A DNA stretch of 64,000 nucleotides. It comes from an uncultured Chloroflexia bacterium (GTDB lineage Bacteria > Chloroflexota > Dehalococcoidia > DSTF01 > WHTK01). Shown here one piece after another: positions 39,452 to 48,101 of the stretch; position 1 is the stretch's first letter; each line of letters starts with the position of its first letter. The notes beneath the pieces are model-generated. The model ran no database searches and had not been told where the DNA came from. It saw nothing but the letters and a program-made list of their open reading frames with translations. The position numbers and the translations under genes were made by a program. Where the stretch lies: contig CAVSWS010000041.1 of the NCBI GenBank assembly GCA_963731765.1, positions 77,691 to 141,690 of the forward strand, written 5' to 3'.

Positions 39452-39625
39452 CCGGCGCATCCGGCGCCACGTGCCGATTGGGCCGAGTCTTCTCTAATAA
39501 GCCAATCGGCCCCGCCCGGACGCGCCGGATGGCCCTACGATGCTTCGTTTGCCGCGCCTAAGTTGTAGGAAGTGAGTCCCGGGAGATACCGGGCTGCAGG
39601 CACGACGAAAGGCTGTGAAGACGCA

Positions 39626-40156
39626 ATGACCACAATTCTGGCAACGGTGGACGGCTCCGACGAGTCACTGGCAGTGATCCCTGCTGTGCAAAAGCTTGCG
39701 GCAGACCAGGATGCGAGCGTGCGGCTCCTGATGGTCGTCGATCGCCCGTCGGCGACGGCGCGACGGTCAAGTAACATCTCTCGCTCGCCGACTGCGCCCG
39801 CGGAGGGTGTTCCCGGCGCGCCCATGAACTTCGGTCCTGTCAATCGGCCGGAGCCAAATTGGGCTGAGTCCGAGGAGCAGGCTTTCGAACGGGCAGCGGC
39901 CGAAGGTCATGACTACCTCGAGTCCGTCGCCAAGGTACTCCGAGACGCCGGTGTCAAAGTCGAGACCGAAATCATCGTCGATGACGACTACAGTCGCGCC
40001 ATCATTGGGTACGCGCGGGAGAACAGGCCGGACATGATCGCCATGGCGACGCACGGTCGCAGCGGTCTCAGCGGCCTCGTGCAGGGCAGCGTCGCAGCAG
40101 CCGTAGTGCGCGCCGGTGTTGCCCCGGTACTCCAGGTCCGTCCGTCCGGGAAATAG
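39626..40156 (+). CDS. Universal stress protein (UspA family)
   Basis: Start at 'MTTILATVDGSDES', aa 19 of the track ORF. C-terminal 'MATHGRSGLSGLVQGSVAAAVVRAGVAPVL' Usp ATP-binding motif. Confidence 0.8.
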   Translation: MTTILATVDGSDESLAVIPAVQKLAADQDASVRLLMVVDRPSATARRSSNISRSPTAPAEGVPGAPMNFGPVNRPEPNWAESEEQAFERAAAEGHDYLESVAKVLRDAGVKVETEIIVDDDYSRAIIGYARENRPDMIAMATHGRSGLSGLVQGSVAAAVVRAGVAPVLQVRPSGK

Positions 40157-40193
40157 CAATTGACATAAGAGACGCTTGTCGAGGAGGGAACAC

Positions 40194-40598
40194 ATGACAA
40201 AGATACTCTTACCCCTGGACGGCTCCTCCTGCTCCGAGGCGGCCATTCCTGTTGCGAAGAACCTGGCAGGCTCTCTCGGTGCGACCCTCGTTCTCGTCAT
40301 AGTCGGCAATCTGGCAGAGACGGGAAAAATGGCGCACGAGGAAGAAGGGGAGCTGAAGGACACGCTGAAGCGCCTTGCTAAAGAGCACTCCCTCGGCGAT
40401 AACCAGCGCATCGATATGGGCGGGGACGCCGCGCAGGGTATCCTCAGCATTGCGGACGAAGAGGGCGCCGACTTCATCGTGATGGCGACGCATGGCCGCT
40501 CCGGTCTGTCAGACCTGGCGCAGGGCAGCGTCGCCCAGGAAGTGGTACGAGACGGGCGCAGGCCCGTGGTCCTCGTCCGTCCGTCGAACGAACAGTAG
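40194..40598 (+). CDS. Universal stress protein (UspA family), tandem paralog
   Basis: Start at 'MTKILLPLDGSSCSEAA'. 'MATHGRSGLSDLAQGSVAQEVVRDGRRPVVLV'. Confidence 0.8.
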   Translation: MTKILLPLDGSSCSEAAIPVAKNLAGSLGATLVLVIVGNLAETGKMAHEEEGELKDTLKRLAKEHSLGDNQRIDMGGDAAQGILSIADEEGADFIVMATHGRSGLSDLAQGSVAQEVVRDGRRPVVLVRPSNEQ

Positions 40599-40678
40599 TA
40601 GGCATAGAAGCGAGAGGCTCCGATACATGACGAACCAGACCGACAACGACTTCTCCACCCTTCTCACGCAGCTGGCCC

Positions 40679-41515
40679 GTGGCGACGTCGCCATTGGGGA
40701 TCTGCCGCTGGAGGACGAGGGGTTCTGGCTCGCCGTCTTTGAGCGCGCTGCCCACCCGGGACGCATGCAGCCGCAAGGCCCGCATGGCCACCGCCAGCGA
40801 GCTGCTCCTGCATCGCTCCCTCAAGGGCAAGGCGGCGTCCGCGCGCCGTCAGGCTGCTGCGAGCGCCCTGACCAGCACCGACCGCAACGCCCGTCGCGAA
40901 GCCATTCGCATCATGCACGAGATCGAGGCGGACGCGGCGATGCTCGATGCGGCTGCTAAGGCCGTCAACGACGACGACGGCGAGGTGCGCATGGAGGCTG
41001 TCCGCCTCCTCGCCAAGTACCCCTCGGCGCGCTCTGTGCCGGCCCTGCTCGAATTGCTGAGAAACGCCTTCGACGCCCGCGAGACGATCGCTTCGGAGGC
41101 GCTGGCCACCATCGGTGCGCCCGCCGTTTCCGGGCTGACCGAGATGCTCGACAACCAGGACCAGCGCATACGTTGGCGGGCGGCCCGTTGCCTGACGAAG
41201 ATCGCCGAGAACGGCGAAGCGAAATCGCTGAAGGCGCTCCTCAAGGCCCTCCACGACGACTCTCCTGACGTCGCATGGGTGGCCGCCGATGGGCTCCTCG
41301 CCCTTGGGCCCGCCGTCCAGCTTGACGTTTTGCGCTCCGTGTTGAACGAGCGACTGACGCCCGGCATCAGCCGCGCTCTACAGCACTACGCCGACCACTC
41401 GTCGCCGCGGCGCACCTTCCAGCCCCTGATCCAGGCGACCCGCGGCTCCGCCACCGGCACAGCCACGCTTGTCGCGATCGAGCAGGTGCTCAAGACGCTG
41501 GAAGGCGCCGGGTAG
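40679..41515 (+). CDS. HEAT/PBS-lyase repeat protein (N-terminus possibly encoded in another frame from 40627; candidate frameshift)
   Basis: HEAT-like repeats 'DDDGEVRMEAVRLLAKYPSARSVPALLELL', 'DQRIRWRAARCLTKIAENG', 'DSPDVAWVAADGLLALGP'. A plausible N-terminus 'MTNQTDNDFSTLLTQLARGDVAIGDLPLEDEGFWLAVFERAAHPG' with a GAGAGG SD lies in frame +1 (ORF 40492..40959) and degenerates into low-complexity sequence after about 40762. Confidence 0.5.
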   Translation: MATSPLGICRWRTRGSGSPSLSALPTRDACSRKARMATASELLLHRSLKGKAASARRQAAASALTSTDRNARREAIRIMHEIEADAAMLDAAAKAVNDDDGEVRMEAVRLLAKYPSARSVPALLELLRNAFDARETIASEALATIGAPAVSGLTEMLDNQDQRIRWRAARCLTKIAENGEAKSLKALLKALHDDSPDVAWVAADGLLALGPAVQLDVLRSVLNERLTPGISRALQHYADHSSPRRTFQPLIQATRGSATGTATLVAIEQVLKTLEGAG

Positions 41516-41603: not shown

Positions 41604-42482
41604 CTAATCGCTTCCTGCGTCTGACATCGCGTGAAAGCCGCTGATGATCTCCAGCAGCGCGTTCGTCTCCGAGATCTGGCGTGCGCGGTTGGCGTCCAGC
41701 GTTAGCTCTTCCAGCAGATGGCGCGCGTTGTCTGTCGCCAGGCGCATAGCAGCAACACGCGCCAGCTCCTCGCTGATCGCCGACTCCACCACGGCCTGAT
41801 AGAGGTCGATCAGCACGTGCTCGACCACGAGATGCTGCAGGACGTTCGGCGCGTCGGCCTCAGGCCGCACGTCCAGGTCGCGCCGCACCTCGCCCTCGGG
41901 CGTCTCGATGGGCTCGACGGGGTAGAGCTGGCGCGTAACCACCTCGTACTGAAATCGATGCGCAGGGGCGTTGTACATGACGACGAGCTTGCCGCAGGCC
42001 CGCTCCTCCATCAGGTCCAGCAAATCGATGGCCACCTGTTCTACGTCGGGATACGCCGGCAGGGCAAAGGTCGGCATCGGTGATTCGTACGCCAGCGTTT
42101 CGCCCGCCGCCCGGAGCAGGCGTTGGCCCTGGCGCCCCAGGCACACGAGGACCACCTCGTCCTCCGCCGCCTGCAGCCGTCGTAGCTCAGACCGCACTCG
42201 ATTGACCAGGTGCTGGTTGAAGGCACCGCACAGACCGCGCTCCGATGACACGGCGACCAGTACCATACCCCCGGTCGCATTCGCGCTGTTATCGGGGCGC
42301 TCTGCGGCTTGCAGCACGCCCAGCAACGTTTCGAGGCTCTCTGCGTAGCGCCGTAGTGGCTCCAGCCGCGTCCCAGCACGGCGGTAATCGATCTCCGCAA
42401 TCGACCGCATCGCTTCCAGCAGCGGCACAACCTGCTGGATGGCGTGCTGGTGCCCTCTGATCGCATCGTAGTCGGCTGTCAT
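41604..42482 (-). CDS. atpG: ATP synthase F1 gamma subunit
   Basis: Start at 'MTADYDAIRGHQHAIQQV', aa 71 of the over-extended track ORF. This start overlaps the atpA stop by 4 bp. C-terminal 'ISEELARVAAMRLATDNA...ITLDANRARQ...ISGFHA'. Confidence 0.9.
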   Translation of the reverse strand: MTADYDAIRGHQHAIQQVVPLLEAMRSIAEIDYRRAGTRLEPLRRYAESLETLLGVLQAAERPDNSANATGGMVLVAVSSERGLCGAFNQHLVNRVRSELRRLQAAEDEVVLVCLGRQGQRLLRAAGETLAYESPMPTFALPAYPDVEQVAIDLLDLMEERACGKLVVMYNAPAHRFQYEVVTRQLYPVEPIETPEGEVRRDLDVRPEADAPNVLQHLVVEHVLIDLYQAVVESAISEELARVAAMRLATDNARHLLEELTLDANRARQISETNALLEIISGFHAMSDAGSD

Positions 42483-44011
42483 GCGCCGCTGCCCTCGTGC
42501 TCGCCCGCCGCGGCCTTCGCCGTGTCCACCCACTGCGACAGCTGGGCTTCGAGCTCGGGTGTGACCTTTTCGGCCGTACTTGCCAGCGCATCGACCTCGG
42601 GGTAGTTCACCGCCAGGGTGCGCAGCGCCGCCTCGAAGTGGGCCACGCCGTCCGGCTTCATGTCGTCCAGCCGCCCCGTCTTCAGCGCCCACATCTCGGC
42701 CACCTCGACGGCGAGGGGCACGGGCTGCCGTTCGTCCTGGCCCAGCACGGCGGTCAGGCGTTCACCCCGCGCCAGCTGGCGTTGAGTCGCCTCGTCCAGG
42801 AGCGTTCCGAAGCGCGTAAACGTCTTCACCTCCTGGTACTGCGAAAGCTCCAGGCGCACGTTTGCCGCGGCGTCTCGCAGCGTCCCGGGCTGCGCGCTGC
42901 CACCCACGCGTGACACCGACAGCCCCACGTCGACGGCGGGCAGTTGCCCTTCGGCGAACAGCGTCGCGTCCAGGTAGATCTGACCGTCCGTCATCGAAAC
43001 CAGGTTCGTGGGTATGAAGCCGGAGAAGTTGCCTCGCTGCGTCTGGATGATCGGCAACGCCGTCACGGAGCCGCCGCCGAGCGACTGGTTCAGCTTGAAG
43101 GCCCGCTCCATCAGGCGGGCGTGGGCGAAGAAGATGTCGCCGGGGTAGGCCTCGCGAGTCGGCGGGCGTCGCAGCAGCAGCGAAATGCTGCGATATGCTT
43201 CCGCGTGCCGCGTCAGGTCGTCGTACACGATGAGCGCCGGCCTGCCGTGGTAGGCGAACCACTCGGCGATAGCGCAGCCCGCGTACGGCGCCAGGTAGCG
43301 CAGGGCCGCCGGCTCCGAGGCGTCGGCCACGACGACGACTGTGTGTGCGAACGACCCGAGGCGATGGAGCTCGTCGCTCACCTGGCGCACGGAAGACCGC
43401 CGGGCGCCGATGCTCACGTACACGCAGACGATGCCGGTGTCCTTCTGGTTGATGATCGCGTCGATGGCCAGGCTCGTCTTGCCGGTCTCGCGGTCGCCCA
43501 GGATGAGCTCGCGTTGGCCCCGGCCGATCGGCACCGCCGCGTCGATCACCTTGCAGCCCGTGAGGAGAGGCTCGCGCACCGGCTCCCGGTCCAGCACGCC
43601 CGGCGCCTCTTGCTCCACCTCGCGCCACTCCGTCGCGCCCAGCGATGCGCCACCGTCGCGGGGCTCTCCCAGCGGGTCAATCAGCCGGCCCAGCACGGCA
43701 TCGCCTACGGGCACGCTCGCCAACCGGCCCGTCCGCAGTACCGGCGAACCGGCGCTGATCCCGGCGTCTGCCCCGTAGAGCACGCAGCCGACCACTTCGC
43801 GCTCCAGGTCCAGCACCTGCCCGTGCGTGCCGTTTTCGAACACGACGATCTCGTTGTTCGCCACGTCCGGCAGTCCGGACACGCGTGCCACGCCGTCGCC
43901 CACGCTGATCACGCGGCCGATGTCCTGTACCGAGGGCGAAATCTGCATCTCGCCGGCGCGTAACTCGAGCCGGTCCAGCATCTCCTCCAGGCGGCGCTCC
44001 ATGTTCGTCAT
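42479..44011 (-). CDS. atpA: ATP synthase F1 alpha subunit
   Basis: 510 aa. P-loop 'GDRETGKTSLAIDAI'. Full-length alpha homology. Confidence 0.95.
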   Translation of the reverse strand: MTNMERRLEEMLDRLELRAGEMQISPSVQDIGRVISVGDGVARVSGLPDVANNEIVVFENGTHGQVLDLEREVVGCVLYGADAGISAGSPVLRTGRLASVPVGDAVLGRLIDPLGEPRDGGASLGATEWREVEQEAPGVLDREPVREPLLTGCKVIDAAVPIGRGQRELILGDRETGKTSLAIDAIINQKDTGIVCVYVSIGARRSSVRQVSDELHRLGSFAHTVVVVADASEPAALRYLAPYAGCAIAEWFAYHGRPALIVYDDLTRHAEAYRSISLLLRRPPTREAYPGDIFFAHARLMERAFKLNQSLGGGSVTALPIIQTQRGNFSGFIPTNLVSMTDGQIYLDATLFAEGQLPAVDVGLSVSRVGGSAQPGTLRDAAANVRLELSQYQEVKTFTRFGTLLDEATQRQLARGERLTAVLGQDERQPVPLAVEVAEMWALKTGRLDDMKPDGVAHFEAALRTLAVNYPEVDALASTAEKVTPELEAQLSQWVDTAKAAAGEHEGSGA

Positions 44012-44769
44012 GCCGCACCGCCTTCCTGCTCGCTCAGCATCTCGAGCTGATGCAGCAGCGTCATATCGACAACGTGGGCACCGAGAAGGATGCGCGCGCC
44101 CGCCAGCAGCTCCGGTGCCTCACGTACCTCCACGACCACCTCATCGGGAGGCAGGTCCAGCGTCTTACCGATCAGGCCCCGCAGCGACTGCTCCTGCGCC
44201 GCTTCGAGGGGGTAGGCGGACTGCACCACGATTTTGTTCGCGTCTTTGTGCAAATCCTCGGCTGCTTCCTGGCGCGCTTCTTCCTGGAAACCCAGGCCTT
44301 CAGACAGCAGGCGCTCGATCAGGGCGTTGTGCACCGCTTCTCCGGACGACTGTCGCACCAGCGACCCCGCGATGTTCACGGCCGACCGGGAGAGCCGTTG
44401 GCCCACCCGCTCCATCGCCGCTTTCTCCTCGGTCGTTGCCGTCGCGCGCGCCGCATCCACGAGCGCGGCGGCGTCCTTCTTCGCGGCTTCGATTAGCCGC
44501 TCACGCTCCTTGCCCGCCTGGCTGCGCGCCGTTTCCAGCATCGTCGCCGCCTCACGCGCTGCTGCCTCCGATTGCTGCGCCAGCTTCACGCGCGCTTCAT
44601 CGGCTTCGCGGCCCCGGCGTTCAGCGTCCTCGATACGTTCGTCGATCTGAGCCTGACGCTTCTGCATCACGTCCAGTACGGGGCGGTAGAAGAAGCGAGT
44701 GAGGATCGCCAGCAGGATCAGGAAGTTGATGATCTGGAAGACGAACGTAGGAATGTCGAAGCCGAGCAT
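44008..44769 (-). CDS. atpF: ATP synthase b subunit fused to a delta (OSCP) C-terminal-like domain
   Basis: 253 aa. N-terminal TM 'FVFQIINFLILLAILTRFFY' plus long charged coiled coil (b). C-terminal 'DEVVVEVREAPELLAGARILLGAHVVDMTLLHQLEML' resembles the delta C-terminal motif. No separate atpH in the operon. Confidence 0.65.
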   Translation of the reverse strand: MLGFDIPTFVFQIINFLILLAILTRFFYRPVLDVMQKRQAQIDERIEDAERRGREADEARVKLAQQSEAAAREAATMLETARSQAGKERERLIEAAKKDAAALVDAARATATTEEKAAMERVGQRLSRSAVNIAGSLVRQSSGEAVHNALIERLLSEGLGFQEEARQEAAEDLHKDANKIVVQSAYPLEAAQEQSLRGLIGKTLDLPPDEVVVEVREAPELLAGARILLGAHVVDMTLLHQLEMLSEQEGGAA

Positions 44770-44778
44770 GCTTCGAGC

Positions 44779-45291
44779 TTACGGCAGCACTGTGCTCGTC
44801 AGCGGGTTCGCGAAGAGCAAGATGAGCGCAATGATCAGGGCGTACAACGCCAGGGATTCCAGCAGCGCCAGGCTGATGAAGAGCGTGGTTGAAATGGCGT
44901 CACGTGCGCCGGGCTGCTCCGCGATCGATTGCATCGCCGCCGCAGCAACGCGCCCCTGACCCACGGCCGCCAGCATCGTGCCCAGCGTGATCGTCAGGCC
45001 TGCCACGATGGCCGAGCCCGTGACGAACCAGAACTGCGCCTTGCCCGCCTCGGCGGCCCGTGCCGCATCACTCTCCAGCGGGTTCGCAAATAGCAACACC
45101 AGCGCCACGATCAGCACGTACAGCGCCAACGACTCCACCATTGCGAGCGATACGAAGAGGTTGCGGCTGATCGTCCCGGCCTCGTCCGGCTGGCGGGCGA
45201 TAGCCTGCACGGCGGAGCGAGCCGCCATCGCCTGGCCGACCGAGGGCAAGATCACCCCGGCGCCGATCGAGACGCCGGCCGTGGCGATCAC
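44779..45291 (-). CDS. atpE: ATP synthase c subunit, tandem-duplicated and fused (double hairpin, 4 TM), both ion-binding Glu retained
   Basis: One uninterrupted frame encodes two c hairpins: '...[70 protein letters not shown]' and '[77 protein letters not shown]'. The DNA shows diverged direct repeats, both beginning 'CAGCGGGTTCGC.A.A..AGCAA'. Proposed GTG start at aa 104 of track ORF 44779..45600, which is otherwise over-extended into atpB. A CTG/ATT start about 10 codons upstream is an alternative. Confidence 0.6.
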
Positions 45292-45317
45292 CGCGACATG
45301 GAACCAGCTTTCGGAAA

Positions 45318-45992
45318 TCAGGCTGCACCCCCTTCCGCTCGGACCGCACCGGCGATGTAGACAATGGTCAGGATTGTGAAGATGTAAGCCTGAAGCACGC
45401 CGATGAATAACCCGAACACTTCCAGCACGGCCGGCACCACGAGTGGGAGCACGACCAGCAGCACTGCCACAATTATCTGATGCGAGAGCATATTCCCGAA
45501 GAGCCGAATGGCCAGTGAAAACGTGCGCGTCAGATGACTGAGCAGATTCATGGGCAGCAGGAGCACCGAGGGCTCTGCAAAGCTTCTCATGTAACCCCAC
45601 ACCCCCTGCTCCCGGATACCGAAGTAGTGGACTGAGAAGAACACGAGAACGGCGAGCGCTGCCGGCGTGCTGATCGTCGCGGTAGGCGCTTCGACGTAGG
45701 GCAGCACCGCCATCAGGTTCGCAACGAGGATGAACAGCCCGATGGTCGCCACCAACGGCAGGTAACGTCGCCCGCTATCGCCCGTCATCTCTCCAATCAG
45801 GCTGGATACGCCGCCGATGCTCCACTCTGCTACGGCCTGCCAGCGCGAGGGCCGCGCCTGCAAATGCTGGCCGCCGTAAATCGCCAGCACCGAGATCACC
45901 GCCACCATTCCCCAGGTCGCCACCACCGTTGCGGTGACCTGGATACCGGCGAGGCGAAAGATCACGTCCTTTTCAAGCACTGTCGCGATCAT
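45318..45992 (-). CDS. atpB: ATP synthase F0 a subunit
   Basis: 224 aa. Conserved Arg context '[22 protein letters not shown]'. Five or six TM segments. Confidence 0.85.
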
Positions 45993-46170
45993 CGCCGTCC
46001 TCCTCGTGCCGGATCGTCTTCAGCGCCATCGTCATCGTGCGCACGGCTTCCAGCAGCGCGAGCCCGATACCGCAGCCCAGCAATGCGATCGTCGCGTAGG
46101 GGTGCGTCCCCAGCACGCCGTCCGCCACTCGTCCAAGCAAGATCCCGCCGGCAATCGGCAGCACGATCAT
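45973..46170 (-). CDS. Small F0-associated membrane protein of the AtpZ/'ATPase gene 1' (AtpQ/AtpI-like) family
   Basis: Two TM segments with 'LGRVADGVLGTHPYATIALLGCGIGLALL' matching the LGxxxDxxxxTxP...G...G pattern of the 'ATPase_gene1' family. Met start at aa 59 of the track ORF, which otherwise overlaps atpC. Confidence 0.5.
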   Translation of the reverse strand: MIVLPIAGGILLGRVADGVLGTHPYATIALLGCGIGLALLEAVRTMTMALKTIRHEEDGDDRDSA

Positions 46171-46228
46171 CCAACCCAGCGAGGTGAGCTGGGCCACGTG
46201 CCGCCACAGCGGCGGACTACCCTGAGCG

Positions 46229-48101
<1,873 letters not shown>

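Follow-up and report, generated by a model that had tools for sequence, protein, structure and literature searches.

Can a rotary ATPase of the F or N type build its rotor ring from c subunits in which two hairpins are fused and neither has lost its ion-binding carboxylate? This question is raised by a 64,000-nucleotide stretch of DNA from an uncultured Chloroflexia bacterium (contig CAVSWS010000041.1, positions 77,691 to 141,690; the whole stretch is hereafter called the window). On its minus strand lies an atpE-like gene, here called c2, that encodes two c-subunit hairpins in a single polypeptide. We think it fairly probable that c2 is an intact, selected gene that starts at a CTG codon and provides the only rotor-ring subunit of an N-ATPase-like operon, whose enzyme would assemble a homomeric c2 ring and serve as an accessory cation pump.

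In every rotary ATPase, the ion/ATP ratio is determined by how large the ring is and how many carboxylates it carries, and fusion of c hairpins is held to be the step from synthases to V-type pumps. To our knowledge, natural F-type fusions have so far been limited to c1 proteins of the Acetobacterium woodii type, in which one site is lost.

Two c hairpins in one reading frame

The gene and its parts are as follows.

44779..45321, minus strand: c2, atpE-like fused double-hairpin c subunit, 180 codons plus TAA (open reading frame (ORF), translation and two PF00137 stretches)
45076..45318, minus strand: hairpin 1, residues 2-82; first transmembrane helix (TM1) with Pro26 and Gln30, loop Arg43-Gln44-Pro45, TM2 with Glu63-Ser64 and Tyr68
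45034..45075, minus strand: linker, 14 residues (83-96), a putative short helix on the membrane side opposite F1 (AlphaFold2)
44782..45033, minus strand: hairpin 2, residues 97-180; TM3 with Gln122 and no Pro, loop Glu135-Gln136-Pro137, TM4 with Glu155-Ser156 and Tyr160
44795..44883, no strand assigned: DNA direct-repeat copy 1, encoding the end of TM4 in hairpin 2 (repeat search, family D1)
45071..45159, no strand assigned: DNA direct-repeat copy 2, encoding the end of TM2 in hairpin 1 (repeat search, family D1)

The frame runs from CTG 45321 (or ATT 45318, or GTG 45291) to the TAA at 44781-44779 with zero internal stops. The predicted mass of the product is 18.4 kDa from the CTG and 17.3 kDa from GTG 45291. 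Pfam finds two ATP-synt_C (PF00137) stretches with a total of 98 bits against a cut-off of 24, and the halves taken singly score 41.9 and 48.5 bits with TIGR01260, one just short of the cut-off of 43.95 and one above it. The two halves share 41 of 77 aligned residues (53%), with a BLOSUM62 score of 199 compared to 30.7 +/- 5.4 (maximum 49) in 500 shuffles.

The similarity extends to the DNA, where two 89-nucleotide copies that are 73% identical lie 276 nucleotides, or 92 codons, apart. There are exactly two copies of the 12-mer CAGCGGGTTCGC in the window (44800 and 45076), for a chance expectation of 0.08. A first-pass annotation made from the letters alone had described one frame with two full c hairpins that keep both carboxylates, and a diverged DNA repeat (of which it quoted this 12-mer) in both halves. 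The frame, the Pfam stretches, the alignment of the halves and the repeat copies bear this description out, and all the motifs it listed were found (loop 1 ARQPDEAG, loop 2, both TM2 glutamate motifs and the linker). The c2 gene is confirmed as a real fusion of two c hairpins in one polypeptide.

Both hairpins keep a complete ion-site set. We searched for invariant columns in an alignment of 46 diverse members of the c2 family (alignment A1, also the input for AlphaFold2). Pro26, Gln30, Arg43-Gln44-Pro45, Glu63-Ser64 and Tyr68 are invariant in hairpin 1, as are Gln122, Glu135-Gln136-Pro137, Glu155-Ser156 and Tyr160 in hairpin 2. The carboxylates in the second helix of each hairpin, Glu63 (codon 45133-45135) and Glu155 (in LESLALY; codon 44857-44859), are therefore kept throughout these members. 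Because the glutamine, the Glu-Ser pair and the tyrosine are invariant in both hairpins, both ion-site sets appear to be under selection.

The halves also differ in a regular manner. The Pro kink is found in hairpin 1 only, and loop 1 is invariantly RQP while loop 2 is invariantly EQP, with the Arg replaced. In F-type c subunits, the polar RQP loop is the part in contact with gamma and epsilon. Directly after Glu-Ser, most relatives have Gln in hairpin 1, where the window has Leu; in hairpin 2, all members inspected have Leu. The length of the linker is constant across the family; its codons vary both synonymously and non-synonymously, with no stop in any relative. In the AlphaFold2 model (mean predicted local distance difference test score, pLDDT, of 95.6), helices span residues 4-43, 45-78, 94-135 and 137-170, with a linker helix at 81-92. 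The fold is thus predicted to consist of two hairpins joined on the side away from F1.

An N-ATPase-like operon in distant lineages

Seven further genes complete the operon.

46608..48095, minus strand: atpD, beta (ORF limits; the annotated ATG lies 7 codons inside; TIGR01039, 651 bits)
46229..46627, minus strand: atpC, epsilon (PF02823)
45973..46197, minus strand: AtpQ (ATPase_gene1), small membrane protein of 74 amino acids (PF09527, E = 5e-11; gene calls of locus L001)
45318..45992, minus strand: atpB, Fo a subunit, 224 amino acids (PF00119, 162 bits; LAIRLFGNM motif with the stator Arg)
44008..44769, minus strand: atpF, long b, 253 amino acids (PF00430, and delta/OSCP-like PF00213 at residues 172-248)
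42479..44011, minus strand: atpA, alpha (NF009884, 641 bits; cut-off 554)
41604..42482, minus strand: atpG, gamma, 292 amino acids (PF00231; gene call of L001)

The order is beta-epsilon-AtpQ-a-c2-b/delta-alpha-gamma, and the operon contains no separate delta/OSCP gene. The order described for N-ATPases is atpDCQRBEFAG (Dibrova et al. 2010, PMC2881411). The window operon shares with them this order apart from an empty atpR slot, the AtpQ gene, the missing delta gene and a long b with a delta-like C-terminus, and its relatives add the spread into archaea and the occurrence as an extra enzyme. The first-pass annotation had set the gene in an F-type c context. Its fusion part stands; the ordinary F1Fo operon gives way to one with N-ATPase-like order, AtpQ and no delta gene.

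A scan of one genome per species identified 13 loci with a fused c2, and a plasmid search added one more. The 13 loci come from Chloroflexia and Limnocylindria metagenome-assembled genomes (MAGs), Binatia, Methylomirabilota, an unclassified bacterium and the cultured haloarchaeon Halogranum amylolyticum. In all 13 and in the plasmid locus, the fused gene stands in the same operon (with the same gene order in the 13 genome loci), and it is never split into two separate genes. Looking for the fusion in close relatives had been proposed with the first-pass annotation, and every relative found is fused at the same place.

Two of these loci are haloarchaeal. The bacterial-type c2 operon of H. amylolyticum is carried on NZ_FODV01000013.1. 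That of Salinigranum marinum ZS-10 lies at 289281-296093 of a 321-kb plasmid (NZ_CP100463.1), beside a MazF/helix-turn-helix toxin-antitoxin pair. We take the haloarchaeal c2 operons as evidence of inter-domain transfer.

A Binatia locus holds two operons. In the Candidatus Binatia MAG JBFWZL010000160.1 (L009:82-9955), a c2 operon is followed directly, head to tail, by a bona fide N-ATPase operon. This second operon, used as a control, passes all the alt_F1F0 cut-offs tested (beta 815, a 352, c 164) and encodes AtpQ, AtpR and a single-hairpin c with a Glu in helix 1 and an ESTAIY motif.

The class of the window enzyme was assigned from NCBIfam scores and from pairwise identities to one N-type and one F-type operon. 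The nearest NCBIfam models of a, b and each c half are all N-ATPase-related. For subunit a, the best models are N-type-related (NF004481, 230.7 for a cut-off of 227; altF1_A, 201.8 for a cut-off of 302), and a is 42% identical to the N-type and 34% to the canonical F-type protein. For b, the top model is alt_F1F0_F0_B, with 137.8 below the cut-off of 224.7. Against TIGR03322 the c2 halves score 87 and 77, below 130.85, and the whole c2 passes with 151.6 only by summing two stretches. The remaining alternate F1F0 scores are 594 bits for beta (alt_F1F0_F1_bet; cut-off 752), 565 bits for alpha (alt_F1F0_F1_al; cut-off 750) and 84 for gamma (cut-off 282). A V-type affiliation finds no place here: V-type K models reach at most 46 bits on c2 for cut-offs above 100, and the genes around c2 encode F-type alpha, beta, gamma, epsilon, a and b.

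AtpR is absent from the window, where there is no room for it between AtpQ and atpB and where tblastn with the ORFs that occupy the AtpR slot in relatives gave no match. An ORF between AtpQ and atpB is likewise missing from L004, L006, L008, the first operon of L009 and the two haloarchaeal loci (L015 and L020). In L007, L010, L011, L013, L014 and L016 the slot contains a membrane ORF of 90-101 amino acids; only that of L010 matches PF12966, and weakly (E = 0.021). N-like loci without atpR are known (PMC4154653).

Several points weigh against an N-ATPase-like accessory pump that starts at CTG. Once the c halves are scored separately, every subunit stays below the NCBIfam alternate F1F0 cut-offs. 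The window beta is 51% identical to the N-type beta of L009 compared to 55% to a canonical F-type beta, and AtpR (PF12966) is missing. The c halves have a Gln in helix 1, not the Glu typical of N-ATPases, and a Leu where Na+ rings have the Thr of ES-T-xxY. CTG initiates translation very weakly in model bacteria. Finally, if the Chloroflexia host has no other ATP synthase, the c2 enzyme must be the synthase.

We therefore read the operon as a putative divergent sister lineage that would work like an N-ATPase, and we do not claim membership in the N-ATPases proper.

Accessory pump or main synthase

The foremost alternative accepts the fusion and takes the operon for the main, reversible F-type ATP synthase of its host, a rearranged F1Fo and not an accessory pump. 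It draws on the beta identities given above and on the general atpD and atpA models, which score higher (651 and 608 bits) than the N-ATPase models (594 and 565 bits, both below cut-off). The base composition of the operon (66.3% G+C) is also near that of the window (65.0%), with no island signature or other sign of recent acquisition, and no second atp operon lies within the 64-kb window. This alternative has to contend with the N-ATPase hallmarks of the operon (order, AtpQ, no delta gene and the b/delta fusion) and with subunits a, b and c that are closest to N-type models. Moreover, a haloarchaeal plasmid carries the same operon, and elsewhere a true N-ATPase operon adjoins it; in neither setting can it be the only synthase. 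We consider it a minority view that deserves serious attention.

An accessory ATP-driven cation pump would be the most likely role of the c2 enzyme. This assignment follows from the analogy with N-ATPases, from haloarchaeal hosts that also have an A-type synthase and from the Binatia context. Haloarchaea retain an A/V-type synthase (PMC4154653). N-ATPases always come with a second rotary ATPase in the genome and are laterally transferred, a pattern that fits the haloarchaea (the S. marinum plasmid and H. amylolyticum) as well as the Binatia locus.

The start codon of c2

Two positions matter for where c2 begins.

45319..45321, minus strand: likely start CTG, overlapping the atpB TGA as CTGA; the alternative ATT is at 45316-45318
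45289..45291, minus strand: annotated GTG start of the public 170-amino-acid product P0001; probably an internal Val11

The first-pass annotation had named the same candidates, and correctly so: the GTG (45291) is codon 104 of the long ORF, with CTG 45321 and ATT 45318 at the atpB stop. Homologues of c2 have an ATG, GTG or TTG start exactly at the position of the window CTG. At the a/c junction, L006 has GTGA over the atpB stop, and the window, L004 and L005 have CTGA. A Shine-Dalgarno-like GGAAGGGGG (GGAAGG(G/A)G) stands 6-7 nucleotides upstream of the CTG.

Initiation at the annotated GTG would yield 170 residues with a shorter first helix and leave the in-frame codons upstream untranslated. 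GTG is a canonical start codon and the one used in the public annotation, and CTG and ATT rarely serve as starts. Nevertheless, the starts of the homologues sit at the CTG position, and the SxxWF segment encoded upstream of the GTG is conserved and mirrors the FWF at the beginning of hairpin 2. The codon at 45291 is GTT in L004, so it is not conserved as a start, and the annotated product of L004 (156 amino acids) begins inside TM1. Codon changes upstream of the GTG are mainly synonymous: over the first 10 codons, the window and L004 are separated by 4 synonymous changes and 1 non-synonymous change. For these reasons we regard the GTG start as unlikely.

The true start of c2 is most likely CTG 45321 or, less likely, the adjacent ATT, judging from these comparisons of sequence. 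Initiation at the CTG would presumably proceed by translational coupling to the termination of atpB. Public annotations of c2 that begin at the GTG (170 amino acids) or at an internal ATG (156 amino acids) are probably truncated, because a non-canonical CTG start would escape the gene calls.

A proposed homomeric ring with an even number of hairpins

With n copies of c2, the ring would be homomeric and contain 2n hairpins. Odd rings, for example the c17 of the Burkholderia N-ATPase, would thereby be excluded. Each hairpin would carry one ion (H+ or Na+) past the Arg of the a subunit, giving 2n/3 ions per ATP. Halving of the ion ratio applies to V-type fusions or to fusions of the A. woodii c1 type that have lost one carboxylate. 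Since both glutamates are kept in c2, the number of ions per hairpin should be unchanged and only the parity of the ring constrained. The first-pass annotation had expected a change in both the ion/ATP ratio and the constraints on the ring; the second expectation holds, as odd hairpin numbers would be forbidden, and the first does not follow from the fusion by itself.

In c rings, the ions are held between neighbouring hairpins (PMC2359735), so that a ring of c2 would have alternating intra- and inter-protomer ion sites. Such a ring would present two alternating, non-identical sites together with alternating cytoplasmic loops, RQP (as in normal c) and EQP. The Gln, Glu, Ser and Tyr of c2 match four ligands of the Na+ ring of I. 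tartaricus; unlike in that ring, a Leu takes the place of the Thr in ESTxxY.

Only one of the two carboxylates might work, or c2 might mix with a single-hairpin c encoded elsewhere, which would give a hybrid ring as in A. woodii with a lower ion/ATP ratio. The closest solved relative, A. woodii c1, works in this way (PMC9171764). The systematic differences between the halves (RQP and EQP; Pro26 and no Pro) would be in keeping with such an arrangement, as would the single-hairpin c gene in the operon next to the c2 operon of L009. On the other hand, a silent site would hardly be expected to keep Glu, Ser, Gln and Tyr invariant in both hairpins. The second Glu of A. woodii c1 is replaced by Gln, and no single-hairpin c gene is present in the operon or elsewhere in the window, where c2 is the sole c gene. 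A hybrid ring or a silent site is accordingly improbable, and we retain the homomeric ring in which both sites would carry ions.

Conservation and origin of the fusion

The 180-residue c2 sequence is identical in three independent assemblies, two from ENA metagenomes and one from Logan. None of them has the stop or frameshift between the halves that the first-pass annotation had named as the observation to look for. A search of 5.8 billion proteins yielded 360 clusters at E <= 1e-5. Among the best 120 of these 360, from which lengths were taken, all are double-length, with 156-187 amino acids and most with 180-182; shorter entries reflect truncated annotations. Between the window and L004, the c2 codons show 74 synonymous and 26 non-synonymous differences, suggesting strongly purifying selection.

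A few short hits were inspected as possible unfused versions and rejected. P0124, P0142 and P0164 are fragments at contig ends, and P0126, P0152 and P0164 go out of frame after the linker, owing to sequencing errors. In the Chloroflexia MAG CAVYJE010000016.1 (L005, 7280-10542), apparent frameshifts occur in a, the N-terminus of c2, b and alpha relative to all other loci. They are most likely errors of the MAG assembly.

A rival reading would attribute the fusion to an error of assembly or sequencing, or to a decaying pseudogene made of two neighbouring atpE genes. It has prior plausibility and the precedent of L005 with errors in several atp genes, and is effectively refuted by the identity of the three assemblies, by a frame kept in the 13 genome loci, the plasmid locus and at least 120 clusters, including cultured haloarchaea, and by the purifying selection on c2.

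Across organisms, the mean identity is 71% between first hairpins and 70% between second hairpins, compared to 51-52% between first and second hairpins. Because like hairpins are closer to each other than unlike ones, a single duplication would have preceded the spread of the family. This pattern points to a c2 duplication that is both single and ancient.

Comparison with known c subunits

The best match to c2 in the PDB is A. woodii c1 (4BEM_J), with a sequence E-value of 1e-16 over residues 15-173 and a structural TM score of 0.73. Both proteins are natural two-hairpin fusions of about 180 amino acids encoded in bacterial F-type operons. They differ in that the second hairpin of c1 has lost its carboxylate (AVAQTTGIY, with Gln for Glu), whereas c2 keeps both, invariant. 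In A. woodii, c1 is the minority component of a hybrid ring, in which each c1 is accompanied by nine single-hairpin subunits, there called c2 and c3 (PMC9171764); unlike this system, the window operon encodes no single-hairpin c alongside. The halves of A. woodii c1 are 64% identical to each other and about 33% identical to the window c2 halves. These identities indicate that the c2 duplication is independent of the c1 fusion.

N-ATPase c subunits are single hairpins, usually with a Glu in helix 1 and ESTxxY; in contrast, c2 is double, with a Gln in helix 1 and ES(L/Q)xxY. AtpR, part of the N-ATPase operon, is missing from the window and can be recognised only weakly in some relatives. The solved N-type ring, from Burkholderia pseudomallei, is an H+-specific c17 (PMC5376962), a size that is impossible for c2.

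Duplicated A-type proteolipids (Methanothermobacter thermautotrophicus and Methanobrevibacter smithii; PMC2359735) resemble c2 in having a full ligand set in each hairpin and one ion each. They belong to archaeal A1Ao enzymes with A/B catalytic subunits and another operon, whereas c2 is F/N-type by sequence and context. The V-type c subunits (Enterococcus hirae NtpK, PDB 2BL2, and eukaryotic Vo) share the four-helix double hairpin, with Foldseek TM scores of 0.6-0.7; unlike c2, they have one carboxylate per four helices, stand in a V/A-type operon and are about 20% identical to it.

Engineered fusions offer another comparison. E. coli subunit c fusions (c2 and c3) with both carboxylates, the work of Jones and Fillingame in 1998, reportedly assemble into a working Fo, indicating that a covalent design of this kind is workable mechanically. 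Their halves are identical and their linker is designed, whereas the halves of the window c2 have diverged to 53% identity and carry fixed asymmetries.

In the open-access literature, we found no described fused or duplicated c like the c2 family; only A. woodii c1 and the archaeal and V-type cases came up. The ATPase branch that bears c2 is apparently undescribed.

Implications for rotor design

Taken more widely, the c2 operons might represent a distinct sister lineage of the N-ATPases that moves laterally and has spread through Chloroflexota, Binatia, Methylomirabilota and haloarchaeal plasmids, with an obligate homomeric c2 ring that combines alternating sites with an RQP/EQP crown. We put this view forward tentatively, giving it slightly less than an even chance. 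If true, no natural F/N-type enzyme described so far would have a rotor of this design. Such a rotor would have a fixed ring parity, and it might introduce an asymmetry of two steps into ion translocation or the coupling to gamma and epsilon.

The c2 family would then represent a natural and widespread F/N-type enzyme at a stage at which the hairpin has been duplicated but nothing has been lost, and at which the differences between the halves are fixed. It would offer a testable system for the relation between covalent pairing and ring stoichiometry, with even numbers only where the solved N-type ring is c17, and would make it possible to ask whether coupling depends on the alternation of sites and loops. 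With this family, the N-ATPase group, still poorly understood, would reach into soil Chloroflexia and onto plasmids of cultured haloarchaea. Salinigranum and Halogranum are possible experimental hosts for the c2 operon.

Other multi-hairpin c proteins

Fused c proteins are also found outside the c2 family. For example, the ENA contig ERZ27249683 k141_1008707 (L019:5566-7164) encodes a c protein of 434 amino acids with five hairpins, each with an ES(T/P)AIY glutamate, followed by an ordinary c of 89 amino acids. The operon there is canonical F-type (atpI-a-c-c-b-b'-delta-alpha-gamma-beta). The 434-residue protein would make this bacterial F1Fo a natural case of a pentameric c fusion. Another protein, P0123 (968 amino acids; representative search), has 13 c-like stretches in one polypeptide and recalls the 13-hairpin rotor of Methanopyrus kandleri.

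A fused double of a bona fide N-type c, P0132, is encoded between the a and b genes on a 1.1-kb contig (L018:425-982; Logan SRR34348030). It has a Glu in helix 1 and IYCF/ANPFW motifs; identity is 60% between its two halves and 62-66% between the halves and an N-type single c. These halves group with the N-type single c proteins, and the fusion is independent of that of c2.

Fused doubles had been called rare in the first-pass annotation. This holds for the literature and fails in sequence space, given the double-length proteins in the best 120 of the 360 clusters and the other multi-hairpin c proteins. Hairpin fusion in F/N-type rotors is thus commoner in sequence space than the literature suggests.

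Surroundings of the operon

No Rfam family was found in the window. A scan for promoters and terminators around the operon returned 1 promoter-like and 3 terminator-like sites, no more than in shuffled controls. Universal-stress-protein, HEAT and major facilitator superfamily neighbours are common only to the closest relatives, and the conserved neighbours give no functional clue. The window has a HEAT-repeat gene and two universal-stress-protein genes immediately downstream of the gamma gene, encoded on the other strand (39572-41515). Universal-stress-protein and HEAT neighbours also occur in L005, and universal-stress-protein genes are found near the operon of L007.

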